DNA of 24,000 nt from Aliidiomarina sp. (GTDB lineage Bacteria > Pseudomonadota > Gammaproteobacteria > Enterobacterales > Alteromonadaceae), in contig NZ_JBLRWZ010000018.1 of assembly GCF_047920995.1 (NCBI RefSeq), positions 1 through 24,000 of the forward strand. Reading direction: 5' to 3'. This document shows, piece by piece, positions 1 to 18,856 of the stretch; the stretch's first letter is position 1, and each line of letters starts with the position of its first letter. A model generated the notes under the pieces. It was not told where the DNA came from, ran no database searches, and saw only the letters and a program-made list of their open reading frames with translations. The position numbers were made by a program, and so were the translations under genes.

Positions 1-24
1 GAATTGGACCGCAACAATCCCTAA
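1..24 (+). CDS. 3' end of an ORF running off the left edge (last residues ...ELDRNNP, then stop); possibly the precursor gene of the MNIO cluster
   Basis: Frame 1 is open from nt 1 to TAA at 22-24. That stop overlaps the ATG of the next gene (TAATG, 22-26), which suggests translational coupling. Seven residues are too few to identify the product. Confidence 0.3.
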   Translation, partial: ELDRNNP

Positions 25-896
25 TGGCCGATTTCAACGCAAATAGTTTGCCACGCTCTGTACTTGGTGCCGGTGTTAGCCTAAAACTTCAACACTATCC
101 GGAAGTACAGAGCGCAGCGGCAGATGGCATTTGGTTTGAGGTGCACACGGAGAACTTTTGTGGTATCGGTGGCGCTAGGCTTGAAGCTCTGCAGGTGATG
201 GCGGAAAAATTTCCTTTAAGTCTCCATGGTGTTGGAGCTTCCCTTGCGGGCCCTGATCAGCTGAGTAAACAGCACTTGTTATGGGTTCAAAATTTAGTTG
301 AACGTATTCAGCCAGCACTTATTTCAGAACATGCAGTTTGGTCGGGTATTCAGGAAGCTTATTTTGCAGATTTATTACCTTTTCCAAGAACCAAATTCAT
401 TTTACAACAATTAGCTGAAGGCATACATCGCTATCAAGAAACAATCGATAGGCCTTTATTAATTGAGAATCCAACACATTACGTTAATTTTTGCCATGAG
501 ATGAGTGAACCAGATTTCATGCTAACACTAGCTAAAACTACTGGATGTGGTTTGTTGCTCGATATTACCAATTTGTATTTAAGCCAGATTAACTGTGGCG
601 TAAATGCTCGGCAATACTTAGATCAAATTCCTCCTCACCTAGTAGGTGAACTGCATGTAGCTGGTTTTTCAAGCGACCCAATTGAAGGCGATCGTTTATT
701 AATTGATAGCCATGATCATGCACCGAATGAAGAAATACTAAGCTTACTAGATTATGCATTAGCGCGTTTTGGTATGAGGCCAGTTTTATTAGAGTGGGAT
801 GATCAAATTCCTGAACTAAATGTGCTTCTGCAGGAACGCGAGCGCATTCAAAGTGTGTTAGATCGGCATTTGGATAGCGTAGATGCAGCAAGTTAA
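24..896 (+). CDS. DUF692/UPF0276 family protein: multinuclear non-heme iron oxidase (MNIO, MbnB/BufB-like) RiPP-modifying enzyme
   Basis: 290-aa ORF with TIM-barrel DUF692 hallmarks in the translation: EVHTENF, LSLHGVG, ISEHAVW, LLIENPTHY, LLLDITNLY, ELHVAGF, LIDSHDH, LLEWDD. These are His/Glu/Asp-rich strand ends. Its stop is overlapped by the following DUF2063 gene. Confidence 0.85.
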   Translation: MADFNANSLPRSVLGAGVSLKLQHYPEVQSAAADGIWFEVHTENFCGIGGARLEALQVMAEKFPLSLHGVGASLAGPDQLSKQHLLWVQNLVERIQPALISEHAVWSGIQEAYFADLLPFPRTKFILQQLAEGIHRYQETIDRPLLIENPTHYVNFCHEMSEPDFMLTLAKTTGCGLLLDITNLYLSQINCGVNARQYLDQIPPHLVGELHVAGFSSDPIEGDRLLIDSHDHAPNEEILSLLDYALARFGMRPVLLEWDDQIPELNVLLQERERIQSVLDRHLDSVDAAS

Positions 897-1659
897 TGAA
901 TCGTTCTATCAGCAACTTATCGCCTATTTGCAGGGTGAAACTGCAACTAATTTAACCCCATGGGTGGGATTCAAACCGGAAGACCTGAGGCGATTAAAAA
1001 TTTACCGCAACAGCAGTATGAAAGCTTCGATACAAGCTTTAGTTGATAATTTCCCAGTGAGTGGTTCAGTAATACCCATTAACCAATTCCGGCATTTAGC
1101 TAAAGAATATGTACTTAAAAATCGGCCTACTCACCCTGTATTAGCTTGGTATGGGCAGGATTTCCCAGATTGGTTACTAAAACAAATAGATCAGCATCAT
1201 TGCTCATGGCTGGCCGACTTAGCTAAGTTAGAACGTTGTTGGCTTAATTGTTTACTGGCTGAGGATCAACAAGCCGTATCAGGAGAGGATATTGCCCATC
1301 TCGCAAGTGAAGGTATCGATATTCAATTACTCACCATGAGCTTGTGCGCGCATGTTGAACTATTAGAAACACATTTTGATGTTTGGACCTTGTGGTTACA
1401 ACAACGCAACAATTCAGGAAACGTTCAACTTTCCTCGATTGCTGCCGAGAAAACACGAAGGATGCTATGGCGACAAGCCAACCATACTGTGCAATACCGA
1501 TTATTATCGGATGCTGAATGGACATTTATACAAACTTTGAAAAAACAACCTTGCTCTTTGCAGAACGCAGTAAGTAAGGCATGGGAAGTAGACAAGCTCT
1601 TTGATGTTAGTGGTAGCTTCGCGGGCCTTTTACAAAACCGCTTGTTGCGCTTAATTTAA
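883..1659 (+). CDS. DUF2063 domain protein (BufC-like MNIO partner / putative precursor-recognition subunit)
   Basis: 258-aa ORF whose ATG at 883 overlaps the DUF692 stop by 14 nt. N-terminal DUF2063-type motifs are visible (LKIYRNS, ALVDNFP, YGQDFPDWL). The DUF692-DUF2063 pairing is the canonical synteny. Confidence 0.8.
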   Translation: MQQVNESFYQQLIAYLQGETATNLTPWVGFKPEDLRRLKIYRNSSMKASIQALVDNFPVSGSVIPINQFRHLAKEYVLKNRPTHPVLAWYGQDFPDWLLKQIDQHHCSWLADLAKLERCWLNCLLAEDQQAVSGEDIAHLASEGIDIQLLTMSLCAHVELLETHFDVWTLWLQQRNNSGNVQLSSIAAEKTRRMLWRQANHTVQYRLLSDAEWTFIQTLKKQPCSLQNAVSKAWEVDKLFDVSGSFAGLLQNRLLRLI

Positions 1660-1677
1660 CCTAAAAGGAATCAGATT

Positions 1678-2217
1678 ATGACCTTGGTAACTGTTATACA
1701 GGAACGCTATTACCAACTAGCTATGTGGTTAGAGCGTTTGTTTGAACCTTTTGCTCTATTAGCTATTCGATTATTAGTTGCTCAGGTTTTTTTACTCTCT
1801 GGATTATCAAAATGGACTGGCTTTTTGCAGTTTGATGTTAACAAGTATGAACTTTTTTTATATGAGTTTTTCTGCCCTGATCCTATTCGGCCAGGCGCTT
1901 TGTTACTATGCAATCCAGATACATTGGAATATACAGAAGGTTCTTTTGGTGTTTGGTTAGCGGAAACAATGGCGGTGATGGCTGGGGTGGTTGAAGTAGT
2001 ATTACCTATACTTTTAATTCTAGGTTTATTTAGCCGTTTTGCCGCTTTTGGTTTATTGGGTATGACGCTTTTTATTCAATTTGCTGTTTATCCAGATTGG
2101 AGCCATTTTTGGAACCCTGCAGCATGGTGGGCTGGAGTGTTATTTCTCATAGTTGCTAAGGGGCCTGGGCTGATTTCATTGGATCGTTGGTTACGACTAG
2201 AGCGTAAAGCTAGTTAA
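1678..2217 (+). CDS. DoxX family integral membrane protein
   Basis: 179 aa with about 4 hydrophobic helices and the DoxX N-terminal signature (LLAIRLLVAQVFLLSGLSKW). An AAGGA RBS lies 8 nt upstream of the ATG, 18 nt after the DUF2063 gene. Confidence 0.85.
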   Translation: MTLVTVIQERYYQLAMWLERLFEPFALLAIRLLVAQVFLLSGLSKWTGFLQFDVNKYELFLYEFFCPDPIRPGALLLCNPDTLEYTEGSFGVWLAETMAVMAGVVEVVLPILLILGLFSRFAAFGLLGMTLFIQFAVYPDWSHFWNPAAWWAGVLFLIVAKGPGLISLDRWLRLERKAS

Positions 2218-3134
2218 CTATGAACCGATCTGAATTCGCCTGGCGACAATGTTTCGTGTTGCTTAAAAAACCGAATAAATGCAGTAGCTGAGTGATAGCC
2301 AATTTGCTCTGCAATACTCTCTAGGCTGAGTTCACTGTGGATCAGTAGGTAACGGCATCGTTGTAATCGTATTTCGTCTAATAGTGACTTTGCCGTCATT
2401 ACCATCACTTTATGGCAGCGCTCAGCGAAAGCACTTTTAGACAAATATGCTAAAGCTGCCATATTCTCCACTGTCCAATCGGCACCCGGCTTATCCATAA
2501 TAGAAAGAACAACTCGGCGAAGAGCAGGATCTTTTAATGCCGCTAAAAGGCCTTGGTTCATGCTGTCGTCTGTTAATACTTGGCGCAATAAATGCAGCAC
2601 AATCACATCACTTAATCGGCTAATTGCAGCTTGATATCCCGGCTGCCGATCCTTCGTTTCCTGCTGAATCAACTGTACAAGCAGGTTGAGCGGGCCACAC
2701 TGCTGATTAACGGGTAAATGAATATAATCGGGCATCGCCTGAAATAAATTAGCTGTTGATGATGATTTAACGGCAATGTCATAACACACCAGGCCACGCT
2801 GCAGGTGTTGAGGAATACAAAAACCTTCAACATTTACCTCACTGGTATGTTCATCCACAGGCTGGTCGCTAAGCCAATGACGGAAACTATGGCTAAAAAA
2901 AACAGCATCACCGGCATGCAGCTGAATTTGTTCTTGGAGCTGGCCAGGGATTGCCATCCACACGCTACCCTGGGTAACAATGTGCAACGCTGCTTTACTC
3001 GATTTACTAGTAAGCAGGTTCCAGTTGTCACAAAAACCTGATTCAAAATGCAATTCAGAGCCAAACGCCAACTGAGATAACAATTGTTCTAGTGGTTCTG
3101 GTGTTTTGGTAGATGGTGCAGATGTTTTGGTCAT
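2214..3134 (-). CDS. AraC family transcriptional regulator with N-terminal cupin-like sensor domain
   Basis: 306 aa. The C-terminal double HTH is typical of AraC/XylS (LSKSAFAERCHKVMVMTAKSLLDEIRLQRCRYLL ... SLESIAEQIGYHSATAFIRFFKQHETLSPGEFR). The N-terminal half is beta-rich and cupin-like. Confidence 0.9.
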   Translation of the reverse strand: MTKTSAPSTKTPEPLEQLLSQLAFGSELHFESGFCDNWNLLTSKSSKAALHIVTQGSVWMAIPGQLQEQIQLHAGDAVFFSHSFRHWLSDQPVDEHTSEVNVEGFCIPQHLQRGLVCYDIAVKSSSTANLFQAMPDYIHLPVNQQCGPLNLLVQLIQQETKDRQPGYQAAISRLSDVIVLHLLRQVLTDDSMNQGLLAALKDPALRRVVLSIMDKPGADWTVENMAALAYLSKSAFAERCHKVMVMTAKSLLDEIRLQRCRYLLIHSELSLESIAEQIGYHSATAFIRFFKQHETLSPGEFRSVHS

Positions 3135-3230: not shown

Positions 3231-4163
3231 ATGCTGCAGTGGTTACAGAAGTTTGAAAAAAAACGGACGTTGCCTGTCCAACCTGAGCAAGTGAACAAAG
3301 ACTTACTCGCTAGCTTAATGATAATGGCGTGGTTTGTAGAAGCAAAAGATCCTTACACTGGCGGTCACTTATGGCGCGTTTCGCGCTATGCCAATCTGTT
3401 GTGCAGAGCTGGGGGGCTTCCGGAAGCTGATATCGCCCGAATCACGCTAGGCGGATTTCTACACGATCTTGGGAAAGTAGCCATTCCCGATTCAATTTTA
3501 AATAAGCGTGGTAAACTCGATGAGAATGAATTTGCCATCATAAAAACGCATCCTGAGGCTGGAGGCCGGCTGTTAGCGGGGCATCCGCTTCGTCACATCG
3601 TAGCGGCAGCAGTTGAATTGCACCATGAACGACCCGATGGCGGTGGCTATCCATATGGCTTGAATGCCAGTATGATTCCAATAGATGCTGCGATCATCGG
3701 GATTTGCGATGCTTTTGATGCGATGACGAGTTTACGTTCCTACCGCTCGCCTATGCCTGTAGAAAAGGCTCTAAATATTATGCGCGAAGAGTGCGGAAAA
3801 CAATTTAATCAATTCTGGTGTGAACAATTTTTAGCACTGGCCGAGCAAAACCTTCTCAATGATATTATGGGCCATAGCGATAACGGTATTCCACTGCATA
3901 CGTGTCCGCTCTGCGGCCCAACTGTGCTCCAACAACGCGATAATAAGCCGGGTGATTTACTCGCCTGTTCAGTTTGCTATAGTGAAATGGAATTATGCAC
4001 TGAACATGGGTATCTAACAGTTAAGCCAACTGGAAATAAAGCCTCTGCCGCGCAACTGCAGCCGAAAGCAGATAACTTATTAATCAAGCAATTGATTGAA
4101 GAATCTATAGGGCATATTCCATTGGAACAAGTAATTCAATTTTCCAGCCATAAAAACCAATAA
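3231..4163 (+). CDS. HD-GYP domain phosphodiesterase (cyclic-di-nucleotide hydrolase) with C-terminal Cys4 zinc-ribbon-like extension; no receiver or sensor domain upstream
   Basis: 310 aa. It carries the HD motif (FLHDLGK) and the HD-GYP signature (HHERPDGGGYP). The C-terminal CPLC-x17-CSVC motif lies at residues 225-249. A GAGAGG RBS precedes the ATG. Confidence 0.9.
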   Translation: MLQWLQKFEKKRTLPVQPEQVNKDLLASLMIMAWFVEAKDPYTGGHLWRVSRYANLLCRAGGLPEADIARITLGGFLHDLGKVAIPDSILNKRGKLDENEFAIIKTHPEAGGRLLAGHPLRHIVAAAVELHHERPDGGGYPYGLNASMIPIDAAIIGICDAFDAMTSLRSYRSPMPVEKALNIMREECGKQFNQFWCEQFLALAEQNLLNDIMGHSDNGIPLHTCPLCGPTVLQQRDNKPGDLLACSVCYSEMELCTEHGYLTVKPTGNKASAAQLQPKADNLLIKQLIEESIGHIPLEQVIQFSSHKNQ

Positions 4164-4183: not shown

Positions 4184-4675
4184 ATGACTGTGATAACACA
4201 TAATTTACAGCAACTGGATGTATTGAACACTATTGTACAACTAGTAAAACCTGAACATTACTCACAAGAACTGAACTGGCCGGGGACCCCCTCAGTAGGT
4301 AAGCATACGCGCCATGTATTGGGGCATTATCAGCAGTTGAGGTTAGCATTCGAGAACAAGCAACTCGATTATCGCTCACGAGTGCGTGATGAAGATATAG
4401 AAACCCAGCCGGCTAGAGCAATACAATGGATTGAAGGGATTCGTAGTTGGCTACAATCTTTGCACAGAGCAGATATTGAATGCACCATCCAGTATCAGTT
4501 TTCTGAAGGCAAAACATTTACTAGCTTACATCGTGAATTGGATTTTGTTGCTAGCCATTGTGTTCATCACTTAGCGCTCATCCATTCTATATTAGAAAAA
4601 TGGGATTATAAATGGCCCGAAAATGCTGGAGTGCATAGCTCAACAGTAGAGTATCAAAAACAATGTGCACTCTAA
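4184..4675 (+). CDS. DinB/YfiT-like four-helix-bundle protein (putative metal- or thiol-dependent enzyme)
   Basis: 163 aa, predicted helical. There are two His-rich motifs, GKHTRHVLGHY near the N-terminus and ASHCVHHLALIH near the C-terminus, resembling the DinB-fold His triad. It starts 20 nt after the HD-GYP gene, and its stop overlaps the next gene by 13 nt. The family call is by eye only. Confidence 0.6.
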   Translation: MTVITHNLQQLDVLNTIVQLVKPEHYSQELNWPGTPSVGKHTRHVLGHYQQLRLAFENKQLDYRSRVRDEDIETQPARAIQWIEGIRSWLQSLHRADIECTIQYQFSEGKTFTSLHRELDFVASHCVHHLALIHSILEKWDYKWPENAGVHSSTVEYQKQCAL

Positions 4676-6273
4676 GCTGGTGGTATAACAATCAGCGAAT
4701 ACACATCTTATTTAATCGAGATGAGCGAAAAAGTAGAGCACCTGCCATTTGGCCAAAGTGCTATCGAGAGGGTGATGTTGACGCTATCATGCCAATAGAT
4801 CCCGAAGGTGAAGGCAGCTGGATAGCTGCAAATTCGTTAGGCCAAGTATTTTGTTTGCTCAATGATTACATTTCCGCGAAGGCGGATACTTCGCTAACTA
4901 GGCAAAGCAGAGGGAAATTGTTGCGAAGCCTAGCACATAGTAAAGATTGGGCGTCGGTTGATGCCATGCTGCAACCCGAACTTTTAACTTGTTATGCACC
5001 ATTTCGGCTAGTAATTTTTACCGGCACACAGGAACCTACACTTTGGCATTGGAATGGGCAGTCAATTCACCAACAGTTTGCTCCCTCCTCTCCTATATCT
5101 AGTTCCAGTACTTTGCCGGGCTGCATACCGCTAATGCGCGAGTATTATTGGCGGAGCGAGATGCGAAAGGCGCCGTCATTACAAACGCTACGCAAGATAC
5201 ACCAGCAAGATCGTCCATGGCATGCTTTCAGTGGAATTGCCATGCAACGACGCTTAGTTGCAACCGTTAGTTTAACGCAGGTGGATGTTAGCGATAGCAC
5301 CGTTACCATGCAATACTGGGATGGCCATCCCAGTCAGCATAGTGAAACAGCAAACAAACGCATACAGTTAAACATAGGCGAAACTGAGCCAGTTGTTTCA
5401 ACTTTTACCTCTCAGTTCAATGTTAAGTCGTTGCTGCAGCGCTATAATCCGCCATTAGCGCAGCGCCTAACCGGCTGGCGCGGTCGCTTTTTAACCTGGT
5501 TGCTGGCAGAAAAAAAGGTAAACACAGTATTACAGGCTTTAAATCAACAGCCAGCAGAACGCTTTTGTGATTTGGCTTTACAACGATTGAATATCGTACC
5601 GCACATTATTGCTTGTCGCTGGCCGGCAGCAGATAGCAGGCCGGTATTTGTTTGTAATCATCCTACCGGCGGGATTGATGGGCTACTTTTAATTAGTGTG
5701 CTGCAAAAACGCTACCCAAATTTACGGGTGATTGCCAATGAAGTTCTCACAGAGATACAACAACTGGCCCCCTTACTCATACCAGTACCCGTATTTGGAA
5801 AACCTAAAGATGCACTACCAGCATTACAAGAAGCATTCGCTAGTAATGCGCCGCTATTAATATTTCCAGCCGGTAGAACTGCACGAATCAACACGAGTGG
5901 CATTCTCGATGACGGCCCGTGGGCGAAACTCGCAGTTACTTTAGCTAGCAGGCAACAGCGGCCGATAACAGTAATGCATCTGGATAACAAAAACTCTCGT
6001 TGGTTCTATTGGTTGGCGCGTTTACGTACCACATTTAAAATCGCTGCTAACCTAGAAATGCTATTATTAGTTCGAGAAATGTTGAATCCAACCAAGAAAC
6101 AACCACGGCTTTTTGTTGATATACCAATGCGGCCGATCGAACTCAGCGCTATTGCCGATCAACATACAGAGCGAATGGCATGGTTAAAACGACGTTGTTA
6201 CCAACTACCATTTATTTACCGGGAGAATACCGATGCAACAGTTAAATTCGGTTGCAGAAGCAGAGCCAATTGA
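4663..6273 (+). CDS. Fusion protein: N-terminal NRDE/TANGO2-family domain plus C-terminal PlsC-type (OlsA/GlsA-like) lysolipid O-acyltransferase
   Basis: 536 aa. The N-terminal domain aligns by eye to human TANGO2 landmarks: MCT start (Cys2), ILFNRDERKSRAP (the NRDE motif), EGSWIAANSLGQVFCLLNDY (matching GGTWLG...ALTNY), SRGKLL and YAPFRLV. The C-terminal half has acyltransferase blocks: VFVCNHPTGGIDGLLL (NHxxxxD-like block I) and LLIFPAGRTAR (FPxG block III). Confidence 0.85.
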   Translation: MCTLSWWYNNQRIHILFNRDERKSRAPAIWPKCYREGDVDAIMPIDPEGEGSWIAANSLGQVFCLLNDYISAKADTSLTRQSRGKLLRSLAHSKDWASVDAMLQPELLTCYAPFRLVIFTGTQEPTLWHWNGQSIHQQFAPSSPISSSSTLPGCIPLMREYYWRSEMRKAPSLQTLRKIHQQDRPWHAFSGIAMQRRLVATVSLTQVDVSDSTVTMQYWDGHPSQHSETANKRIQLNIGETEPVVSTFTSQFNVKSLLQRYNPPLAQRLTGWRGRFLTWLLAEKKVNTVLQALNQQPAERFCDLALQRLNIVPHIIACRWPAADSRPVFVCNHPTGGIDGLLLISVLQKRYPNLRVIANEVLTEIQQLAPLLIPVPVFGKPKDALPALQEAFASNAPLLIFPAGRTARINTSGILDDGPWAKLAVTLASRQQRPITVMHLDNKNSRWFYWLARLRTTFKIAANLEMLLLVREMLNPTKKQPRLFVDIPMRPIELSAIADQHTERMAWLKRRCYQLPFIYRENTDATVKFGCRSRAN

Positions 6274-7123
6274 GCTGATACGGCAGGAGCTAGCAACATT
6301 AGCGCCTTTAGTAACCGTGCGAGGTTTGCATGTATACAGTGCTCGGGCAACGGAAATTCCGGTAACCATGCGAGAGATAGGTAGGTTACGGGAAATTATT
6401 TTTCGCCAATCGGGGGCTGGACGCAATATGGCTCGCGATCTCGATGACCTTGATTATGGCGAAGCGGCTTATTACCAATTGTTAGTTTGGGACCCGAAAC
6501 GCTTTGAACTAGTAGCCATGTATCGATATCAACTAGGTTGGGCATCAACAGAGCACGGCTATGCTATTTTACGAACCCACCAGCTATTTGAGTACAGCAA
6601 CGCAATGCGCGAACAAGTACTTCCATATGGTATAGAACTGGGCCGCTCTGTGGTAAATTCACAAGCTAAAGCTCGTAGCTTGGGGTTTTATGCATTGTGG
6701 GCTGGGCTGGGAACTTTAGCGCGAATGTATCCGCAGTTACGATATTTTTTTGGTAATGTTTCGCTATACCAAAACCTTGGCCGAGATGCCTTAGATTGTA
6801 TGGTTTCATTTTGTGAGCAGCTATATGCTCCACCAGAATCGATGATGTTAGCAAAAGCAGGTTTACAATATCATCCCACTCAATCGCTCAATTGCACAGC
6901 ATGGGAACCACTGAACCCCTCAGCACGCATCCGTGAATTGCAACATATATTGAAACAGTTCGATTGTCGATTACCACCAATTTTGCAATCGTATTTAAGT
7001 GTGGGCAACGATATTTGGTTTGATGACGCTGCACTCGATGATGATTTCGGACAAGCTTATGAGCTGAGTATTATAGTACCGCTCTCTGCAGTAAGCGGTG
7101 TTATTCGAGAACGCTTTTTATAA
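6233..7123 (+). CDS. GNAT-fold N-acyltransferase of the OlsB/GlsB (Acetyltransf_5, hemolysin-like) type; putative N-acyl amino acid synthase
   Basis: 296 aa with motifs typical of the OlsB-like family: IGRLREIIFRQSGAG, DLDDLDY, YQLLVWD, GIELGRSVV, FYALWAGLG, YFFGNVSL, LPPILQSYLSVG, DDDFGQAYELSIIV. A GGGAGA RBS precedes the ATG. It overlaps the preceding gene by 41 nt. Confidence 0.85.
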   Translation: MQQLNSVAEAEPIELIRQELATLAPLVTVRGLHVYSARATEIPVTMREIGRLREIIFRQSGAGRNMARDLDDLDYGEAAYYQLLVWDPKRFELVAMYRYQLGWASTEHGYAILRTHQLFEYSNAMREQVLPYGIELGRSVVNSQAKARSLGFYALWAGLGTLARMYPQLRYFFGNVSLYQNLGRDALDCMVSFCEQLYAPPESMMLAKAGLQYHPTQSLNCTAWEPLNPSARIRELQHILKQFDCRLPPILQSYLSVGNDIWFDDAALDDDFGQAYELSIIVPLSAVSGVIRERFL

Positions 7124-7308
7124 CTATTCATTAGCGCTAAGCTGAAATACGGTCCGAGCCAGTTGCGGCCATTTCGCGTTTCCGATGCGCTAAGCGCGCC
7201 AGCGCACAGACACCTTTAAAGCATCCCTGCATAGTCGCTTCCATGTAGATTTCTACAGCATACGGGTGTTGCATATATCCCGTATAACTTTACTGCAAGG
7301 ATATCCAA

Positions 7309-9663
7309 ATGCGCCCTACAATACTTTTCTTCTCCAGCCTGCAAAAATGGCTGATATTAGCCATAGCTGGTTCACTATTAATGGCCTGCAATGATGCGGG
7401 CCGTGATCCTATTCTCGGTGCAGATGGCAATGTTGCACTCGCACCAACTGTAGTAATGGTAACGCCGGCGAACAATGCTACCGATGTTACTATTACGGAT
7501 CCTACAATAACCGCTGAATTCAGCGTTCCGGTAGCCAGTTTGAGCGCTGCCAACTTCACAGTAACATGCGCAAGCCCCTGTACAGCGCCCTCTGGCACCA
7601 TTGAAATGAATTCGGCCAATACTGTGGCTACTTTTGTTATCGCTGAATCTGACATCCTAGAGCCACTCACTGAATATACCGCTACCATCCATACTGCCGC
7701 TAGCAGCGAAACTGGCATCGCCATGGATAGCCCGTACATTTGGCGATTCACCACCGGGGCTGCTCCGATTGTTGATGAGGAAGAAGAAGAGGAGGACGTG
7801 CTTCCACCCCCACCGCCTCCTGCACCAACCGTAATCATGGTAACTCCGGAAAACAATGCAACGAATGTTGATATCGCAAACCCAGCTATAACGGCCGAGT
7901 TCAACGAGCCGGTAGATAGCTTAACCGATGCTGATTTTACGGTTACATGCGCAAGCCCGTGTACGAATGCCTCTGGCACCATTGAAATGAGTGAAGAAAA
8001 TACCTTCGTAACTTTCAACATTGCCGAGTTTGATACTCTTGAACCACTCACTGAATATACGGCCACCATTTATAATGCTACTAGCAGCGAAAGCGGCGTA
8101 ACGATGCAAGACCCGTATATTTGGGAATTCACAACTGGCCGTACGCCAGATACAACTCGCCCACGGGTGGTTGCAACAAATCCGCTAACAACAGATCCAG
8201 GCCCTACTCCAAATGTTCCAGCTAACACGGTTATTTCCGCTGCATTTAGCGAAGAGATGTTAGCTACCACGATCAATGATACGAGCTTTATTGTTACCTG
8301 TGAGTTGCCATGTGCATCACCTGCAGGCGCCGTGTCATATGTGTCTGGATCTAACAGTGCTGTATTTACACCAGAAGAAAACCTTGCTGAAGGCGCAACA
8401 TACACCGCTACAGTTACTAGTGACGTTACCGATTTAGCGGGTAATCGGCTTGCTGGTAACCAAGCCCCTAGCACAAGTGCTAGTGATTACATCTGGGCAT
8501 TCACTACGATGGCAGCCATTGAGCCAGAGTTTATTTCTATCCTCTCTACCGATCCAATTGATGGTGGTGTAATTGCGGTTTGTGAGAACGCCAGTATTAA
8601 TGCAACCTTCGATATACCTTCTGGCCTGCGCCTTAATCCAGAAACCGTTAACAACATGACCTTTCTGATTGTTGAAAACAACGAACCAACGAATACCGTA
8701 GCCGCTGAATCTATCAAAGTTGATTTAGATACCGGCACCATCATTACCTTTATTCCAGAAAGCGACCTCGTGGAAGGCATGATTTACCGCGCTACGATCG
8801 TAGGTGGAGAAAATGGCGTGAAAGATCTAATGCTTCCTGGCAATCAACTGGAAGAAGATTTCGTTTGGACCTTTACATCAGAAGAGCCTGTTGATGGCTG
8901 TTTACAACCAGCGGATCTTGGCAGTGCTGCACCATTTGGTACATTCGGTGGCAGTGCAGGCGTAACCAATCAGGGTTTACTCACCATTATTAATGGCGAT
9001 TTAGGCACTACGGCTACATCAACATTAGTAACTGGTTTTGTTTCTGAGCCTGGCTGTGAATATACCATTACAACGTTAAATGAAGGCCAAGTGAACGGTA
9101 AAATCTTTACCGCGCCACCGCCGCCAACCGTTGCTTGCCCGCAAGATGGTACTGCAGCTACCGAGGCCATCGCGATTCAGGCGCGCCTTGATGCTGAAGC
9201 GGCATTCATCGCGCTTTCACCTGCCAATATGCCAGGTGGACAAGATCCAGGTAATGATAATCTTGGCAGTCTTACCTTAACGCCAGGTATTTATACCGCC
9301 CCAAGTGGCTCATTCATGATCCAAGGTGGCGACCTAACCTTAGATGCGCAAGGTAATCAAAATGCCGTATGGGTTTTCCAAATGGCAACCACGCTTACGG
9401 TAGGCGGCCCCGGTGCTGATTTCCCACAAAGTGTAACGCTTATCAATGGCGCTCAAGCAAAGAACATCTTCTGGCAAGTTGGCAGCGCAGCAACAATTAA
9501 TGCAGCAGGTGGTGGCACCATGAAAGGCACCATAATCGCGCAAGATGGCGTGAGCATTTCAACCGCTGGCAACGTGAACATCGTTACTTTAGATGGTAGA
9601 GCGTTGTCGCTTACCGCCTCGGTTACGGTTGTAAATACCGTGATTAACGTACCTGCAGAGTAA
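7309..9663 (+). CDS. Surface lipoprotein with four Big_5 (SbsA-type Ig-like) domains and a C-terminal DUF3494 ice-binding-protein-like beta-solenoid domain
   Basis: 784 aa with a signal peptide and lipobox (SLLMA|C27). There are four roughly 105-aa Ig-like modules ending in (Y/F)(I/V)WxFT(T/S). The C-terminal domain matches the DUF3494 pattern: LGSAAPFGTFGGSAGVTNQG..INGDLGTT, LTLTPGIYTA, LTLDAQGNQNAVWVFQ, AKNIFWQVGSAATI, GTIIAQDGVSI, LDGRALSLTASVTV. Confidence 0.9.
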   Translation: MRPTILFFSSLQKWLILAIAGSLLMACNDAGRDPILGADGNVALAPTVVMVTPANNATDVTITDPTITAEFSVPVASLSAANFTVTCASPCTAPSGTIEMNSANTVATFVIAESDILEPLTEYTATIHTAASSETGIAMDSPYIWRFTTGAAPIVDEEEEEEDVLPPPPPPAPTVIMVTPENNATNVDIANPAITAEFNEPVDSLTDADFTVTCASPCTNASGTIEMSEENTFVTFNIAEFDTLEPLTEYTATIYNATSSESGVTMQDPYIWEFTTGRTPDTTRPRVVATNPLTTDPGPTPNVPANTVISAAFSEEMLATTINDTSFIVTCELPCASPAGAVSYVSGSNSAVFTPEENLAEGATYTATVTSDVTDLAGNRLAGNQAPSTSASDYIWAFTTMAAIEPEFISILSTDPIDGGVIAVCENASINATFDIPSGLRLNPETVNNMTFLIVENNEPTNTVAAESIKVDLDTGTIITFIPESDLVEGMIYRATIVGGENGVKDLMLPGNQLEEDFVWTFTSEEPVDGCLQPADLGSAAPFGTFGGSAGVTNQGLLTIINGDLGTTATSTLVTGFVSEPGCEYTITTLNEGQVNGKIFTAPPPPTVACPQDGTAATEAIAIQARLDAEAAFIALSPANMPGGQDPGNDNLGSLTLTPGIYTAPSGSFMIQGGDLTLDAQGNQNAVWVFQMATTLTVGGPGADFPQSVTLINGAQAKNIFWQVGSAATINAAGGGTMKGTIIAQDGVSISTAGNVNIVTLDGRALSLTASVTVVNTVINVPAE
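7441..8139 (+). repeat. Intragenic tandem duplication: two 318-nt Ig-like-domain copies (7441-7758 and 7822-8139), period 381 nt, separated by an acidic/proline linker
   Basis: Copy 1 reads APTVVMVTPANNATDV...TCASPCTAPSGTIEM...EPLTEYTATI...PYIWRFTTG. Copy 2 reads APTVIMVTPENNATNV...TCASPCTNASGTIEM...EPLTEYTATI...PYIWEFTTG. The linker is DEEEEEEDVLPPPPPPAP (about 7774-7821). Confidence 0.85.
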
Positions 9664-11212: not shown

Positions 11213-11962
11213 TTAGTAGTTAGGTGTGTAGTGCAATAATCGATTGCATTCTACTTTAACAACCTCATAGCACTCACAGCTTAGCTTCTCGAGCGCTGGC
11301 CGATTGATTATGGTTAAACAGCCTCGATGATATTCAATAATACCCGCTTTTTGTAATTTTCCTGCCGCTACCGATACCCCTTCCCTGCGCACTCCTAACA
11401 TATTAGCAATGAGCTCTTGGGTCATGGTAAGTACGTTGGTTGGAATTCTATCGAGTGATAACAACAACCATCGGCACAATTGTTGATCCACAGAGTGGTG
11501 GCGATTACATACCGCAGTTTGCGCCATCTGGGTCATGAGCGATTGCGTATAGAGCAGAAATAGGGAGCGGAATTCCTTGCTTCGATCAAATTCCTCTTTT
11601 AACACCTGAGCAGGCAACCGATAAGCCGCGCCTGCACTTTGCACTACTGCTCGATGTGGCGTGCTATCACCACCCAAAAAGAGTGATTTGCCCATCATGC
11701 CATCATTACCGATAACCGAAATCTCTGCTGAATCACCGTTTTCCATCACATAAACCAATGAGATTATTGAGTTAGTTGGGAAAATAGCATATTTAATTTT
11801 TTCGCCAGATTCATATAGCGATTCCCCCAGCGGTAAATCCACTACTTCTAAATGTGGCTTTATCCGTACTTTCACCATTTCGGGTAACGCACTCAATAAG
11901 TAGTTTTGTTCGCATGTTGATTCTGGAAACTCCCCGTTGTCCATCATCTGTATTGAATCCAT
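11213..11962 (-). CDS. Crp/Fnr family transcriptional regulator (cNMP-binding domain plus HTH_Crp)
   Basis: The C-terminal HTH reads LTMTQELIANMLGVRREGVSVAAGKLQKAGIIEY, and the N-terminal beta-roll reads IFPTNSIISLVYVMENGDSAEISVIGNDGMMG. There is no N-terminal FNR Cys cluster. The track start at 11977 is TTG, so I prefer the ATG at 11962 (MDSIQ...), with GGGGAA upstream. The start remains uncertain. Confidence 0.85.
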   Translation of the reverse strand: MDSIQMMDNGEFPESTCEQNYLLSALPEMVKVRIKPHLEVVDLPLGESLYESGEKIKYAIFPTNSIISLVYVMENGDSAEISVIGNDGMMGKSLFLGGDSTPHRAVVQSAGAAYRLPAQVLKEEFDRSKEFRSLFLLYTQSLMTQMAQTAVCNRHHSVDQQLCRWLLLSLDRIPTNVLTMTQELIANMLGVRREGVSVAAGKLQKAGIIEYHRGCLTIINRPALEKLSCECYEVVKVECNRLLHYTPNY

Positions 11963-12086
11963 GGAAGATTTCCCCAATGTTGGACAGCACGTTTATATAC
12001 TGGCGGTTCAGTAATTTTGGTGGCTAGTTATACTCGAGTAATACAACAACTACAACGCAAATCAGGCCTTACTTCCACCTTTACGA

Positions 12087-12129: not shown

Positions 12130-12279
12130 CCGATAAACGTAGTAACTTCGGGTCATACTTTAGCACCCTGAAATTTTCCAATAACCTCAAGGCAAATGTG
12201 ATCTATATCGTCCATTTTGAACTACTATAAATGCTACTATTTCTTTATTAATGCGTGCTTAATCACGCGTAGGCTTATC

Positions 12280-12936
12280 ATGAAAAATATCGTGCAAAAT
12301 AACCTTACTATGGTGGGTTTTACTGCCCCTACAGCAGCTAAAATTGCAGCATATATGTTGCTACTAGTGCTTGCCGCTTTCGCCTCATTCAATGGGCACG
12401 CCCAAGAACGTTCGGCCTCAAATAGGGCGCAGTTCTCGCAAACCGAACAAGGCTGTTTAGATACGTTTAACCACTCCTTACGTGCACTACACTCTACAGA
12501 ACAGCATGATTTATGCGAGCTTACTAAAGATAAAGTGGTGCTCGTGGTGAATACCGCAAGCCAATGTGGTTACACCGGGCAGTTTGCAGATTTAGAAGCG
12601 CTCTACCAAGAGTATCAATCGCAAGGCCTTGTTATTCTTGGCTTTCCTTCAGATAGCTTTCGCCAAGAGCATGCCGACGAAGCGGCAACCGCTGATGTTT
12701 GCTTTCGTAATTTCGGGGTAAGCTTTCCGATGATGGCCACCTCATCAGTTACAGGTAACAATGCCAACAACATCTTTAAAACACTTACCCAAGCTACTAG
12801 CGAAGCGCCCGGCTGGAACTTTCATAAGTACCTAATTTCTGCGAATGGCGAGCAAGTTACCAGCTTCGCCAGTGCGGTAAAACCTACCAATGGGGTAATA
12901 GTTAAAGCAGTTGAAGAGCTATTAAAAGCGCGGTAA
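12280..12936 (+). CDS. Glutathione peroxidase family protein (Cys-type), exported/periplasmic
   Basis: GPx motifs are present: NTASQCGYTGQF (peroxidatic Cys), LGFPSDSFRQE, WNFHKYL. I prefer the ATG at 12280 (MKNIVQ...), which is followed by a hydrophobic signal/anchor (AAKIAAYMLLLVLAAFASF). The track start at 12217 is TTG. Confidence 0.9.
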   Translation: MKNIVQNNLTMVGFTAPTAAKIAAYMLLLVLAAFASFNGHAQERSASNRAQFSQTEQGCLDTFNHSLRALHSTEQHDLCELTKDKVVLVVNTASQCGYTGQFADLEALYQEYQSQGLVILGFPSDSFRQEHADEAATADVCFRNFGVSFPMMATSSVTGNNANNIFKTLTQATSEAPGWNFHKYLISANGEQVTSFASAVKPTNGVIVKAVEELLKAR

Positions 12937-13041: not shown

Positions 13042-14094
13042 CTACAAGCCCTGAAACTCGAATGGCGCTGAAGCTACAAAGTTAGCACTAGCCTCACCTG
13101 CGTAGATTTGCCCCTCATCCAACGCCAGCTTTTTCACCTCAGCGCCAGCACTGAAGTTCACTTTGCTGAAATCTACCCAAACGGTATTTGGCGTAAGTAC
13201 ATTCTCGAAGTAGTACACCAAATTACGCTGATCTGCCACTACGCGCCAACGCGTATTCGATAAGTGTGGCTCTTCTGGCGTGCCGATACCATAGGGTACT
13301 GATACGTTGCGCACTACGCTAAATACACTCGCGGCAGCAATTTGCGGATCGCTCGTTTGCGGAATCATATCTAAATAGTACGAAGCTCGCACAAAACGAT
13401 CAGCCGCTTTACCGGTGCCAGGCAAAAACGCTTTACCAGGTACACTTTGCCAATAGCTCTTTATCGCCAGCTGTTCCGCAAAAGGTGGATCGTTGGTCAT
13501 TACTTGGTAATCGCGGCTATGGTGGATTTCTAACTTACCGCCAATATATTCAAATATGGCGCTATCACCGCTAGCATCTGAGAGTGATAAATGCACAGTG
13601 GTGAACTTATCCGTGCCGGGTATAAAATCAGAAACAATCGCAAAAGGTACGTCGGCAAAAAACTCAACTGCCTCGGCCACGGTAGCAAAGTTATCTAACG
13701 TATACTGTGCCCACGCTGAAATGGTAAGCCCTGGGGCATCGCCGTACTGATCAAATTCTGGATATTCAGAGGCTACTAACCATAACAAGTTGGCTACCAA
13801 ACCTTTTTCATTCATACCATCTGGGGTAGCAATATCCCACGAGCTAGCGGCAACGCTGCCATATTTTGAGCGCCAAGTAATAGAATTTGGCCCTACTTGG
13901 CCATGCCGCTCCATACCACGTGGGAAAATCCATAGGTTGGCGGGAATATCAATTGAGAAATCCATACTGCGGCCAGTAAGCACGGTATCATTTGGGCCTA
14001 AATAAACCAAACGAGTGCAAGCCTCTGCTGGGGTTGGCGAGGCAACAACAGCTGCAAAAATTGCGGCCGCTAGTGTAGAAACAACTTTTTTCAT
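13042..14094 (-). CDS. Secreted linear amide C-N hydrolase, choloylglycine hydrolase / penicillin V acylase family (Ntn hydrolase)
   Basis: 350 aa. The signal peptide MKKVVSTLAAAIFAAVVASPTPAEA is immediately followed by CTRLVY, so Cys would be the new N-terminal nucleophile, as in this family. Conserved stretches include GRSMDF, NEKGL and a C-terminal NTRWRVVAD-type segment. Confidence 0.88.
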   Translation of the reverse strand: MKKVVSTLAAAIFAAVVASPTPAEACTRLVYLGPNDTVLTGRSMDFSIDIPANLWIFPRGMERHGQVGPNSITWRSKYGSVAASSWDIATPDGMNEKGLVANLLWLVASEYPEFDQYGDAPGLTISAWAQYTLDNFATVAEAVEFFADVPFAIVSDFIPGTDKFTTVHLSLSDASGDSAIFEYIGGKLEIHHSRDYQVMTNDPPFAEQLAIKSYWQSVPGKAFLPGTGKAADRFVRASYYLDMIPQTSDPQIAAASVFSVVRNVSVPYGIGTPEEPHLSNTRWRVVADQRNLVYYFENVLTPNTVWVDFSKVNFSAGAEVKKLALDEGQIYAGEASANFVASAPFEFQGL

Positions 14095-14208: not shown

Positions 14209-14619
14209 TTAGGCTGCAGCCTCAGCGTGGGCTCTGATTTTTGCCACAATTGCGCGTAAGCCATTACCGCGGGTAGGGCTAATATGCTGCTCTAAATCGA
14301 GGGTTTGGAAGTACTGATCAATATCAAAGGCTAAAATTTCGCTCGGTGTACGCTGGTTATATACCGACATCACCAAACCTAATAAACCTTTCACGATCAT
14401 GGCGTCACTATCTACCGAAAATTCCAATTTGCCATCGTTGTTTTTGCTGATTAGCCACACATCGCTTTGGCAACCTTTCACTTTATAGATATCCAGCCGT
14501 TGTTCCGGGCTAAGCGCAGGAAGCGCTTTGCCTAAATCGATAATGTATTCGTAACGATTTTCCCAATCATCGAGAAACTCTAAATCTTCTAAGATTTCTT
14601 CATGGCTTGGTAATTTCAT
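14209..14619 (-). CDS. sufE: Cysteine desulfuration (sulfur acceptor) protein SufE
   Basis: The SufE active-site context KVKGCQSDVWL is present. The ATG at 14619 (MKLPSHEE...) has AGGA 7 nt upstream and gives a typical length of about 136 aa. The track start at 14676 is TTG. Confidence 0.9.
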   Translation of the reverse strand: MKLPSHEEILEDLEFLDDWENRYEYIIDLGKALPALSPEQRLDIYKVKGCQSDVWLISKNNDGKLEFSVDSDAMIVKGLLGLVMSVYNQRTPSEILAFDIDQYFQTLDLEQHISPTRGNGLRAIVAKIRAHAEAAA

Positions 14620-14696
14620 AACGCGTCCTAGTTTATCGATTTCAGTTTTGTACGGAAGGTTGTATACATTCGGCAAGAGCTTTTTAATGGCGGTAG

Positions 14697-15227
14697 TTAA
14701 AAGAACATGCCGGTTTCAAGCTGCGCTTCTTCGCTCATCATTTCGCGAGACCAGGCTGGGTCAAACACAAGATCAACTTGCACATCACGCACATTCGGTA
14801 CCATCGCTACGCGTAATTCCACATCGCCAACGAGTACCGGCCCCATGCCACAACCGGGAGCTGTGAGCGTCATCTCAATATTCACAATGCCGGTATCTTG
14901 ATGGATATCTACCTTATAGATCAGCCCCAAAGATACGAGGTTAATGGGAATTTCTGGGTCGTAGATACTTTCTAGCGCTTCCCAAACCTGATCCGGATTA
15001 ATGTTGCCATCACCGGCATCTTCGAAATCCAGCACCAGTGCTTGGCGGCCAATCGCATCGGCATCAGTGCCATCAATGCGGTACATATTACCTTTCCAAG
15101 TTACGGTATAATTACCGCCTAACTCTTGGGTAAGGGTAACGAATTCGCCTTGTGGTATTATTTGTTTCTCGCCTTGCGGCACGCGCCGAGCACGCACCTC
15201 ACGCGAGGTAGCCATCATTTTTTGCAT
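14697..15227 (-). CDS. sufT: Fe-S cluster assembly protein SufT (long DUF59/MIP18 family)
   Basis: 176 aa with a C-terminal DUF59 core (IYDPEIPINLVSLGLIY, LTAPGCGMGP). Its ATG overlaps the sufA stop (TAATG). The position inside the suf operon supports the call. Confidence 0.85.
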   Translation of the reverse strand: MQKMMATSREVRARRVPQGEKQIIPQGEFVTLTQELGGNYTVTWKGNMYRIDGTDADAIGRQALVLDFEDAGDGNINPDQVWEALESIYDPEIPINLVSLGLIYKVDIHQDTGIVNIEMTLTAPGCGMGPVLVGDVELRVAMVPNVRDVQVDLVFDPAWSREMMSEEAQLETGMFF

Positions 15228-15586
15228 TAATTATTCACACTAAAACTTTCACCACAGCCACACATATCAGCTACGTTCGGGTTATTAAACTTCACCACAC
15301 CATTTATGCCTTCGCGCACATAATCAATTTCTGTGTTGCGCAGTAAATTCACCGAATCGCTGGCAATCGCCACGATTAGGTTGTTATTTACCTGCACCAC
15401 TTCATCATCGCTTGCCGGCGCCTCTGCCATATCCAGCACATAAGCGTAGCCAGTGCAGCCGTTCACTTTCGTGCTTACACGCACAATTTTACCCGGCTCA
15501 TTTGCCAACTTATTGGTGAAATGCCGCACCGCACTCTCGGTGAGCGTTATAATATCTTTGCTTGGAATATACGCTTCAACAGACAT
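15227..15586 (-). CDS. sufA: A-type Fe-S cluster carrier (HesB/IscA/SufA family)
   Basis: 119 aa with the three family Cys residues: VNGCTGYAY and C-terminal CGCGESF. Confidence 0.9.
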   Translation of the reverse strand: MSVEAYIPSKDIITLTESAVRHFTNKLANEPGKIVRVSTKVNGCTGYAYVLDMAEAPASDDEVVQVNNNLIVAIASDSVNLLRNTEIDYVREGINGVVKFNNPNVADMCGCGESFSVNN

Positions 15587-15600
15587 AATTTGCCTCCAGC

Positions 15601-16824
15601 TTACAGCAACATCGATTGAGCTTTCTTCAGCCCAGCGAACAAGCGTTCAACTTCTTGTTCCGTGTTGTAAATAGAAAATGAAGCCCGCGCTGTGCCTGGC
15701 ACATTTAAACGGCGCATCAGTGGCTGGGCACAATGTTCGCCCGTGCGAATGGCAATGCCTTGGCGATCTAGCAAAAAGCCAATATCGGCAGGGTGAGCGC
15801 CTTCTAGCACAAAGCTTAAGATGGCCACTTTATCTGCCGCTGCGCCTACTACCCGCATTGCCGGCAGCTGTTCAGCTAATTCTAACGCGCGCGCTAACAG
15901 TAATTTCTCGTGCGCTTGCATAGCCACTACATCTTGTGCGGCTAACCAATTCACTGCTGCGCCTAAACCAATAACACCGGCAATATTTGGCGTGCCAGCC
16001 TCTAACCGATTAGGTAGCTCACCCCAGGTAGCATCCTGATAGGTAACACTTGCTATCATTTCACCACCGGTTAACCAAACGGGCCAATCTGCTAATACTG
16101 ATTTACGGCCCCATAATACACCCACACCTGTAGGTGCGAATAGCTTGTGGCCAGAAAATACGTAAAAATCAGCACCTACTGCCTGTACATCAACACCACC
16201 ATGGGCAACGCCTTGGGCACCATCAATTAATACCAGCGCAGCGGGCGCTTTCACGCGTACCTGAGCAGTAAGTTTTTGCACTGCATTTACCGTACCTAGC
16301 GCGTTGGAAATGTGCGGCATCGCCACCATTTTCACGTTTCTGTTCAGTAATGCCGTAAATGCTTCCTCATTCAAGCTACCATCATCAAAAATGGGCGCGA
16401 TTTTTAACGTTGCACCGCTCGCTTTACAGGCTTGTTGCCACGGAATAAGGTTGGCATGGTGTTCAAGCTCAGTAACAATTACTTCATCACCTTCTTGCAA
16501 CCGCTCGCTCATACCTTTGGCAATAATGTTAATGCTTTCGGTAGTACCGCTGGTCCAAATTACTTCCGCTCGGCTACTTGCATTAATAAACGCAGCTACA
16601 TCATCACGGGCTTTTTCATAACGCCGCGTAGCTTCATCAGAAAGCTTATGCGCACCACGGTGCACATTCGAGTTGCACTCGGTATAGAATGCTAAAATTG
16701 CATCTAGCACTGCTTGTGGTTTTTGCGTAGTAGCGGCGTTATCCAAATATACCAGCGGTGAACCATTTACTTGCTGCTGTAAAATTGGGAACTGCGCACG
16801 AATGGCCTCTACATCCCAGCTCAT
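15601..16824 (-). CDS. sufS: Cysteine desulfurase SufS (group II, PLP-dependent)
   Basis: 407 aa with the PLP-Lys motif SGHKLFAPTGVGVLWG and the catalytic Cys loop RTGEHCAQPL. Its start overlaps the sufD stop by 4 nt. Confidence 0.95.
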   Translation of the reverse strand: MSWDVEAIRAQFPILQQQVNGSPLVYLDNAATTQKPQAVLDAILAFYTECNSNVHRGAHKLSDEATRRYEKARDDVAAFINASSRAEVIWTSGTTESINIIAKGMSERLQEGDEVIVTELEHHANLIPWQQACKASGATLKIAPIFDDGSLNEEAFTALLNRNVKMVAMPHISNALGTVNAVQKLTAQVRVKAPAALVLIDGAQGVAHGGVDVQAVGADFYVFSGHKLFAPTGVGVLWGRKSVLADWPVWLTGGEMIASVTYQDATWGELPNRLEAGTPNIAGVIGLGAAVNWLAAQDVVAMQAHEKLLLARALELAEQLPAMRVVGAAADKVAILSFVLEGAHPADIGFLLDRQGIAIRTGEHCAQPLMRRLNVPGTARASFSIYNTEQEVERLFAGLKKAQSMLL

Positions 16825-18853: not shown

Positions 18854-18856
18854 TAC

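Follow-up and report, generated by a model that had tools for sequence, protein, structure and literature searches.

What does a domain of the TANGO2/NRDE family do when it is built into the same protein chain as an enzyme of aminolipid synthesis? The question is raised by a gene at positions 4663-6273 of a 24,000-nucleotide (nt) stretch from Aliidiomarina sp. (contig NZ_JBLRWZ010000018.1, positions 1 to 24,000), the whole of which is called the window here. An earlier note on this DNA had proposed that the gene joins a TANGO2/NRDE domain in-frame to an aminolipid-type O-acyltransferase. The proposal holds, as both domains were found by Pfam and the architecture is conserved, and region 4184-7123 is best explained as a three-gene aminolipid cassette in which adjacent genes overlap by 13 nt and 41 nt. 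The first of these genes, 4184..4675, belongs to the cassette and was missing from the earlier description. The features of the cassette, with lengths in amino acids (aa), are as follows.

4184..4675, + strand: DinB/YfiT-fold His-rich protein, 163 aa (DinB_2, 29.6 bits against a cutoff of 24.8)
4663..6273, + strand: complete fusion open reading frame (ORF), 536 aa, a single uninterrupted ATG ORF
4663..5382, + strand: NRDE/TANGO2-like domain of the Cys N-terminal nucleophile (Cys-Ntn) type, residues 1-~240 (PF05742 and Foldseek)
5383..5418, + strand: interdomain linker, residues ~241-252, the most variable part of the alignment of 30 orthologues (columns ~280-380)
5419..6216, + strand: GlsA/OlsF-N-type lyso-aminolipid O-acyltransferase domain, residues ~253-518 (PF19576)
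6233..7123, + strand: GlsB/OlsB-type N-acyltransferase (GNAT), 296 aa (PF13444, 36.8 bits against 22.4)

The fusion protein and its two domains

The uninterrupted 536-aa ORF claimed previously appears in the ORF listing as a single ATG ORF at 4663..6273 (+), and every motif cited earlier is present in its translation: the MC start, FNRDERKSRAP, EGSWIAANSLGQVFCLLNDY, SRGKLL, YAPFRLV, CNHPTGGIDG and IFPAGRTAR. As an independently assembled contig (L170) is identical, at 100% across 6742 nt, and carries a 536-aa gene call, the ORF is no assembly artefact, and the splitting frameshift or stop that the earlier note had wished to see checked is not there. The idea that a sequencing or assembly error joined two adjacent genes finds some support in the public NCBI record of the same metagenome-assembled genome (MAG; 'Aliidiomarina sp.', P0002), which annotates only a 343-aa C-terminal product, a 'hypothetical protein' starting at internal Met194. 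This product results from a wrongly called start rather than from a frameshift, and its consequence is that the TANGO2-like domain is invisible in the NCBI record. An artefact of this kind is ruled out by the identical contig together with about 35 relatives from isolates and MAGs which have the same two-domain architecture and lengths of 523-605 aa.

These relatives, found in a search of 5.8 billion proteins, are full-length, and carry both Pfam domains at 28-71% identity. The fusion comprises at least 17 clusters at 50% identity. The carriers include isolates of Alkalimonas, Arsukibacterium, Alishewanella and Salinispirillum, under the NCBI name 'NRDE family protein', and a Spirochaetaceae MAG (L002) also carries the fusion. 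Many of them come from alkaline or soda-lake habitats, as with Alkalimonas, Arsukibacterium ikkense, Natronospirillum, Salinispirillum and the soda-lake sediment MAGs. A scan of contigs with the full-length alignment gave mostly GlsA matches from Bacteroidota and two fusion loci, and the remainder was reused as the control set described below. Alignment of 30 orthologues resolves two conserved blocks either side of a hypervariable, insertion-rich linker, and in the AlphaFold2 (AF2) model the predicted local distance difference test score (pLDDT) falls to 71 at linker residues 241-250. Because the model of the whole chain reaches a pLDDT of 90.3 and a predicted template modelling score (pTM) of 0.90, the two domains may be read as packed against each other in a defined way.

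For the N-terminal half, hmmscan placed PF05742 (TANGO2) on residues 1-148, as the earlier note had anticipated, at 31.5 bits with the full protein and 34 bits with the domain alone against a cutoff of 22.6, the match spanning only profile positions 1-157 of 257. The N-terminus reads MCTLSW, and FNRDE follows with NRDE at residues 18-21, thus the Met-Cys start and the NRDE motif of the family are both present. At the sequence level the relationship is distant: phmmer of the N-domain against the PDB sequences gave no relevant match, and profile searches matched TANGO2 no better than E 0.04-0.15, in an alignment limited to residues 12-91. A Foldseek search of the PDB with the AF2 model placed human TANGO2 (9bwa/8sv7) at ranks 1-4, with E ~1e-8 and a template modelling (TM) score of 0.60-0.63 normalised to the target, and then the Cys-Ntn enzymes, namely acyl-CoA:isopenicillin N acyltransferase (2x1d), CV2077 and many bile salt hydrolases and penicillin V acylases; a structural comparison of this sort had been proposed in advance, and its outcome agrees with the family assignment. 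The N-domain is thus shown to be a complete Cys-Ntn fold of the NRDE/TANGO2 family with the Met-Cys start retained.

Profile searches and hhalign pair Cys2 with Cys2 of human TANGO2, N18-R-D-E21 with N25-E28, the invariant N67 with Asn75 and SRG82-84 with GRG; the human sequence used in hhalign is consistent with the residue numbers of PMC13044924 and the 8sv7 fragment. Identity is ~14%, and the alignment stops near residue 122, the second half of the domain being unalignable. This includes the region of TANGO2 Asn157/Lys166, for which the positional candidates are the invariant S148, after the strand at 145-147, and R159, at the start of the helix at 155-169. The candidate active-site residues of the domain are Cys2, Arg19/Asp20 (within NRDE 18-21), Asn67, Ser148 and Arg159. 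A Cys at position 2 is compatible with removal of the Met by methionine aminopeptidase. TANGO2 itself crystallised without Met1 (PMC12359130).

The C-terminal half belongs to PF19576 (Acyltransf_2; residues 258-515, 108.6 bits, cutoff 27) and contains the blocks NHPTGGIDG (H333...D339) and FPAGRTAR. Residues H333, P334, G336, G340, G404, T406 and R408 are invariant in the 30 orthologues, and D339 is conserved too. The earlier description of this half as a PlsC-type acyltransferase therefore stands as regards the acyltransferase and its blocks and falls as regards the family, as PF01553 (PlsC/OlsA), a related family which had been expected here, scored 22.3 bits, short of its gathering cutoff of 23. 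The best NCBIfam model was GlsA (162.7 bits; the glycine-lipid-specific equivalog NF053697 has a cutoff of 260), followed by the N-half of OlsF (123.6 bits), and since the equivalog cutoffs are not reached, the specificity of the domain is not assignable.

The gene downstream, at 6233..7123, is preceded by a good GGGAGA ribosome-binding site, and its first 41 nt are shared with the fusion ORF. It had been taken for an OlsB/GlsB-like GNAT, and PF13444 and the NCBIfam GlsB model (176 bits, below the equivalog cutoff of 300) agree; the C-half of OlsF gave 158.3 bits. The pair does not amount to a bifunctional OlsF, as the O- and N-acyltransferases lie on separate overlapping genes and score 123.6 + 158.3 bits against 620. 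A GlsB-like gene follows the fusion in every locus with enough contig.

The DinB-like partner and the unfused relatives

The gene upstream ends 13 nt inside the fusion ORF (...CAATGTGCACTCTAA), an overlap which suggests translational coupling. Its AF2 model (pLDDT 94.4) is a four-helix bundle of the DinB/YfiT type, with Foldseek TM scores of ~0.7 to YjoA (3dka), 3gor and YfiT (1rxq). The closest structures are uncharacterised 'putative metal-dependent hydrolases', and the mycothiol and bacillithiol S-transferases are weaker matches (E 0.02-0.05). Across 56 homologues H41, R43, H44, R68, R117, E118, H125, H128 and H129 are invariant, among which H41/H44 and H125-x3-H129 make up the predicted metal site expected of this fold. 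The family is common in Vibrio, Aliivibrio, Marinomonas and Shewanella.

A DinB-like gene lies upstream in 7/8 fusion loci, and its association extends to genes in which the NRDE-like domain stands alone. The first two unfused genes looked up had one directly 5', homologous to that of the window (hhalign 99.9% and 99.5%), and in 80 metagenome loci with unfused members it was immediately upstream in 45 of the 60 with room for it, at a spacing of -9 to +61 nt in 44 of the 45 positive loci and +156 nt in the other. No other gene accompanies the NRDE-like domain as constantly as the DinB-like one, and any mechanism proposed for the domain must include it.

The unfused form is by far the commoner one. 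A profile of the N-domain run against 1.84 billion representatives retrieved 6693 proteins, 1939 of them at E<1e-30; among the best 150 of the 6693 there were 17 fusions, the others being free-standing proteins of ~245 aa matched over the whole domain at E 1e-57 to 1e-80. The fusion is thus a minority form of a large, mostly unfused subfamily. Cys2, R19, D20, E21, N67, S147, S148 and R159 are present in 83/83 unfused sequences, and all invariant residues of the N-domain are common to its free-standing relatives. The subfamily, of which 27/27 members tested match PF05742, also has invariant residues of its own (W6, R25, D46, W53, W130, H180 and TVS201-203).

The earlier note had treated the fusion as Rosetta-stone evidence that the NRDE domain works in an aminolipid pathway, and had suggested a survey of fused and split genes across genomes. 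The fusion occurs across genera and phyla, as described above, and the neighbourhoods of unfused relatives were tabulated for 19 metagenome loci with at least 4 kb on each side, drawn from a scan with a tight alignment of unfused members. The genes found there were:

DinB-like: 16/19 unfused loci
VTT/DedA and divergent ATP-grasp, sometimes fused together: 14/19 unfused loci
Aminolipid acyltransferase, OlsF-like or OlsA-like, within 5 kb: 12/19 unfused loci
MauE/DoxX-like membrane protein: 11/19 unfused loci
YHS (seleno)protein: 5/19 unfused loci

Eight of the 12 acyltransferases are OlsF-like proteins of ~585 aa (NF052615, 436 bits) and four are OlsA-like (PF01553). In the control set of 78 ordinary GlsA loci, mostly from Bacteroidota, GlsB was found in 70 and, unlike the window, none (0/78) had an NRDE-like or DinB-like gene within 6 kb. 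Two arrangements are therefore seen across lineages, one with a free NRDE-like gene beside a joined O-/N-acyltransferase and the other with an NRDE-O-acyltransferase fusion beside a separate N-acyltransferase, and the Rosetta-stone argument is corroborated by these loci, the control and the Vibrio cholerae vca0646 cluster described below. The link between the NRDE-like subfamily and aminolipid metabolism is strong, and is independent of the fusion.

Redox and thiol genes also recur as neighbours (thioredoxins, DoxX/MauE, AhpC, an AhpD-like CMD domain fused to an extracytoplasmic function sigma factor, Pyr_redox_2 and the YHS (seleno)protein). The VTT/DedA gene adjoins the divergent ATP-grasp gene, which resembles the cyanophycin-synthetase region, and in several lineages the two are fused as a protein of 570-900 aa (L093:2716-4433, L123:5744-7453, L148:5744-7498, L157:6253-8952 and L171:5198-6912), once with an alpha/beta hydrolase. 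By analogy, the arrangement is reminiscent of a ligase-plus-flippase design.

A cluster of this type is present in V. cholerae, in the order VTT (193), ATP-grasp (378), DinB-like (180), NRDE-like (248), YHS (147), MauE-like (149) and OlsF (580/581), with lengths in brackets. All four modules of the window have homologues in it, and the NRDE-like protein (MCSVTW...FNRDE) is 33% identical to the window N-domain across 246 aa. It differs from the window in that the genes are unfused, the O- and N-acyltransferases are joined as OlsF, and VTT/DedA, ATP-grasp, YHS and MauE-like genes are additional. By position the MauE-like gene is probably vca0647. The YHS '(seleno)protein' (NF041384, 166 bits) and the MauE/DoxX-like gene stand between the NRDE-like gene and olsF both here (L171:8300-9196) and in L093:5760-6648. 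The genes vca0646-0649 were reported as HapR-activated 'genes of unknown function' (bioRxiv 10.1101/2024.09.23.614608), and VCA0650-1 ('D-alanine-D-alanine ligase, hypothetical'), VCA0648-9 and VCA0646-7 were co-downregulated with trx2, grx, msrAB and copA/copG (PMC7600106). Likely roles can now be assigned to vca0646-0651, of which vca0646-0649 have been linked to quorum-sensing-controlled cell death and polymyxin tolerance.

Candidate roles of the NRDE-like domain

The reading which we favour, tentatively and at a little short of an even chance, is that the NRDE-like domain is an accessory Cys-nucleophile amidase or transacylase which works with the DinB-like partner on an aminolipid acyl-amide or acyl-thioester, a chemistry that we infer. 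By homology to GlsB/GlsA and OlsF, the GlsB-like GNAT would N-acylate an amino acid with a 3-hydroxy fatty acid, and the C-terminal domain of the fusion would then join a second fatty acid to the 3-hydroxyl by an ester bond; precedents for the amino acid are ornithine or glycine. Following removal of the Met, Cys2 would form a covalent acyl-enzyme, and the N-domain and DinB-like protein would together act as an amidase or transacylase on the N-acyl or head-group amide of the neighbouring lyso-aminolipid or aminolipid. The pair would in this way turn over, edit or tailor the lipid and take no part in its core synthesis.

The grounds for this reading are that the closest characterised folds make or break N-acyl amides of amphiphiles, and that GlsB makes such a bond. 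NAAA and acid ceramidase act on N-acyl amides of amphiphiles via a Cys acyl-enzyme (PMC13044924, PMC12359130), and the strict invariance of the residues in 83/83 sequences fits an enzyme rather than a passive binder. The accessory nature of the enzyme follows from V. cholerae VCA0646, the 581-aa OlsF, which alone makes ornithine lipid in Escherichia coli (PMC12186959), thus the NRDE enzyme carries out no core synthetic step.

A number of points weigh against this reading. An amidase fused to a lipid-building enzyme is counter-intuitive, and the role of the DinB-like partner is left unexplained. Judged by spacing and secondary structure alone, Ser148 probably takes the place here of the oxyanion residue Asn157 of TANGO2. 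Some lineages have lost the putative catalytic residues and kept the domain: in the fusion orthologue of a Natronospirillum sp. MAG (L001:5990-6700) Cys2 (VDALTW), NRDE (SSRDSAT) and the LLN Asn are gone, so that from its sequence it looks like a pseudo-enzyme domain kept beside an intact acyltransferase, P0035 has likewise lost Cys2 and NRDE, and P0027 is degenerate in part. Its retention in L001 and P0035 suggests that the domain also serves for structure or binding. The neighbourhoods counted all belong to a single subclade of metagenome contigs, and lack phylogenetic independence. Finally, vca0648 and vca0649 are dispensable for cell death on overexpression, for which vca0646 and vca0647 are required (bioRxiv 10.1101/2024.09.23.614608); the NRDE-like gene is probably one of these two, vca0648 or vca0649.

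There is the possibility, which we consider unlikely though not negligible, that the domain instead handles acyl donors. It would bind or cleave acyl-CoA or acyl carrier protein (ACP)-bound chains, possibly via S-acyl-Cys2, and either pass the chain to the fused O-acyltransferase or buffer the acyl-thioester supply, an extension of the acyl-CoA and thioesterase proposals for TANGO2. Purified human TANGO2 binds C16:0- and C18:1-CoA and requires the NRDE motif to do so (PMC11867700), and in the papers on its crystal structure the proposed substrates are acyl-CoA or fatty-acid derivatives, used upstream of lysophospholipid acyltransferases (PMC12359130, PMC13044924). The second-best structural match, 2x1d, takes acyl-CoA as its acyl donor, the fusion is specifically to the O-acyltransferase half in a confident two-domain model (pTM 0.90), and the lineages which retain the domain after losing the catalytic residues fit a binding role. 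However, the strictly conserved, full Ntn-type residue set is beyond what binding requires, OlsF VCA0646 works in E. coli with no such helper (PMC12186959), and the near-obligatory DinB-like partner and the ATP-grasp/VTT genes are left unexplained. The order of NRDE domain then O-acyltransferase may also do no more than mirror an ancestral operon (NRDE ... OlsF).

The recurring thiol and redox neighbours, the mycothiol and bacillithiol S-transferases among the structural relatives of the DinB fold, and one transcriptome table in which the V. cholerae cluster is co-downregulated with trx2, grx, msrAB and copA/copG (PMC7600106) would all suit a thiol-conjugate module. The DinB-like protein would then be a metal-dependent thiol S-transferase and the NRDE-like protein an amidase that trims the conjugate, as in MST/Mca and BstA/Bca, the pair forming a redox or electrophile stress module which would either share no more than its regulation with aminolipid remodelling or have thiol adducts of membrane lipids as its targets. 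We regard this as improbable, given that the nearest DinB structures are putative hydrolases with the thiol transferases ranked lower, at E 0.02-0.05, and that neither the conserved covalent GlsA fusion with its confidently packed model nor the adjacency to OlsF-/OlsA-like genes in 12/19 loci is explained.

A part in binding or trafficking heme, which has been proposed for Shewanella HtpA (SO0126) and for TANGO2 of eukaryotes, is very unlikely indeed. HtpA and TANGO2 do bind heme in vitro (PMC10470608), and the Salinispirillum locus has a ferrochelatase gene three genes upstream of the cassette. Against this, the heme binding of TANGO2 was judged nonspecific in a crystal study (PMC13044924), the heme role is disputed (PMC12782551), a look at roughly 90 neighbourhoods showed no recurring heme or cytochrome genes, and HtpA lies in the canonical branch, outside the NRDE-like subfamily of the window.

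The amidase/transacylase reading can be carried further, in a form which is doubtful at present. In many lineages the DinB-like/NRDE-like pair and the ATP-grasp-VTT(DedA) genes might constitute an unrecognised system for remodelling the head groups or acyl groups of aminolipids. The ATP-grasp enzyme would attach a group by an amide bond to ornithine lipid or to a lipid related to it, VTT/DedA would flip the product, and the NRDE enzyme and DinB metalloprotein would remove or exchange amide-linked acyl or aminoacyl groups via acyl-Cys2; we would attach a low probability to these steps taken together. MprF, beside the aminoacyl-phosphatidylglycerol hydrolases AcvB, PA0919 and AhyD, is an analogue of a head-group ligase/flippase plus a reversing hydrolase, and the likeness is one of analogy only, as the protein families are unrelated. 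Searches with hidden Markov models of ATP-grasp, VTT, MauE-like and YHS found none in the window or within 6 kb or less of the other fusion loci, except YHS in L086, thus the extended-cluster model is not directly applicable to the organism of the window.

How do the cassette and its N-domain compare with systems already known? With human TANGO2 and Shewanella HtpA SO0126 the domain shares the Met-Cys start, NRDE, the Asn75 equivalent N67, a four-layer alpha-beta-beta-alpha Ntn fold and a suspected link to lipid or acyl-CoA. The DinB-like gene, the coupling to an aminolipid synthase and the acyltransferase fusion are features of the window's subfamily which are unreported for TANGO2/HtpA. Isopenicillin N acyltransferase (C45), the bile salt hydrolases and penicillin V acylases, NAAA and acid ceramidase have the same Cys-Ntn fold, to which a weak NF040521 match adds, and work through a covalent acyl-Cys on amphiphile N-acyl amides; isopenicillin N acyltransferase and the bile salt hydrolases also transfer acyl groups. 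The window N-domain has no sequence-level membership in any of these families, and its Cys is predicted to be exposed by Met removal, whereas those of isopenicillin N acyltransferase, NAAA and acid ceramidase are exposed by internal autoproteolysis. PF19576, PF13444 and the two-step pathway are shared with GlsB/GlsA (Bacteroides glycine lipid) and OlsF (Serratia, Flavobacteria, and V. cholerae VC0489 and VCA0646), and the gene order of O-acyltransferase then N-acyltransferase is the domain order of OlsF. The window O-acyltransferase differs in its extra 240-aa Ntn domain and in scoring under the equivalog cutoffs.

Neither the fusion nor the cluster turned up in literature searches on TANGO2 and aminolipids, on NRDE/DUF833 and acyltransferases, and on OlsF together with ATP-grasp, DinB or DedA, and a 2024 aminolipid review does not mention NRDE-like accessory enzymes. 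The architecture had not been recognised as described when first noted, and in public databases it stands under a generic name only; each of the two domains is known, and what is undescribed is their conserved combination and the gene cluster. The function of TANGO2 is contested and clinically weighty, as its loss causes TANGO2 deficiency disorder, and the proposals at present are that it binds acyl-CoA, that it is a Cys-Ntn hydrolase of fatty-acid derivatives, or that it traffics heme. Here a bacterial branch of the family is tied to a defined two-step lipid pathway, covalently by the fusion and also by a conserved neighbourhood, and the substrates and products of that pathway are traceable by liquid chromatography-mass spectrometry in E. 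coli or V. cholerae. Accessory enzymes are thereby added to aminolipid metabolism. By extension, the TANGO2/NRDE superfamily would, if the doubtful remodelling system outlined above is real, consist of lipid amidases or transacylases, and human TANGO2 would gain a concrete candidate reaction. As the subfamily is a divergent PF05742 branch of which only residues 1-122 align to human TANGO2, the argument carries over weakly and the transfer is tentative.

Other genes of the window

Two further genes lie upstream of the cassette.

3231..4163, + strand: HD-GYP-type phosphodiesterase (HD_5, HHERPDGGGYP), 20 nt upstream of the DinB-like gene
2214..3134, - strand: divergent AraC/Cupin_6 regulator, conserved in Alkalimonas, a candidate local regulator

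The HD-GYP gene occupies the same position in Alkalimonas (L081) and is absent from the more distant fusion loci; it is a possible regulatory neighbour. Genes of cyclic-di-GMP metabolism recur beside the cassette in other loci, with a GGDEF-EAL gene directly downstream in Salinispirillum (L082:8582-10393) and a dCache-GGDEF gene nearby in L083:12280-13620, and an OlsF-like protein of 720 aa (P0039) also has a GGDEF domain.

A second Cys-Ntn amidase is encoded in the window at 13042-14094 (-). It belongs to the choloylglycine-hydrolase family (PF02275, 143 bits), and its signal peptide ends ...PAEA|CTRLVY, so that the mature protein would start at the nucleophile Cys26. The product resembles secreted penicillin V acylase or N-acyl-homoserine lactone acylase and has no evident link to the cassette.

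At 24-2217 (+) there are a MbnB/TglH/ChrH-type enzyme that modifies ribosomally synthesised and post-translationally modified peptides (RiPPs), a DUF2063 (HvfC-like) protein and DoxX. The same block in Alkalimonas is preceded by a BufA1 precursor gene and thioredoxin, and the region looks like a bufferin-type metal-binding RiPP operon with its precursor gene just outside the window. Downstream of the cassette, 7309-9663 (+) encodes a protein of 784 aa, which has four Big_5 repeats, an acidic/proline linker (EEEEEEDVLPPPPPPAP) and, at its C-terminus, a domain of the Ice-binding-like type. An antisense ORF of 259 aa at 7290-8069 (-) and others lie over this gene, and are probably by-products of its repetitive composition. 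Further along is a complete Suf iron-sulfur assembly operon at 14209-20293 (-), comprising SufB, SufC, SufD, SufS, an FeS_assembly_P protein and SufE, near which are a glutathione-peroxidase-domain protein (12217-12936) and a Crp-family regulator (11213-11977).

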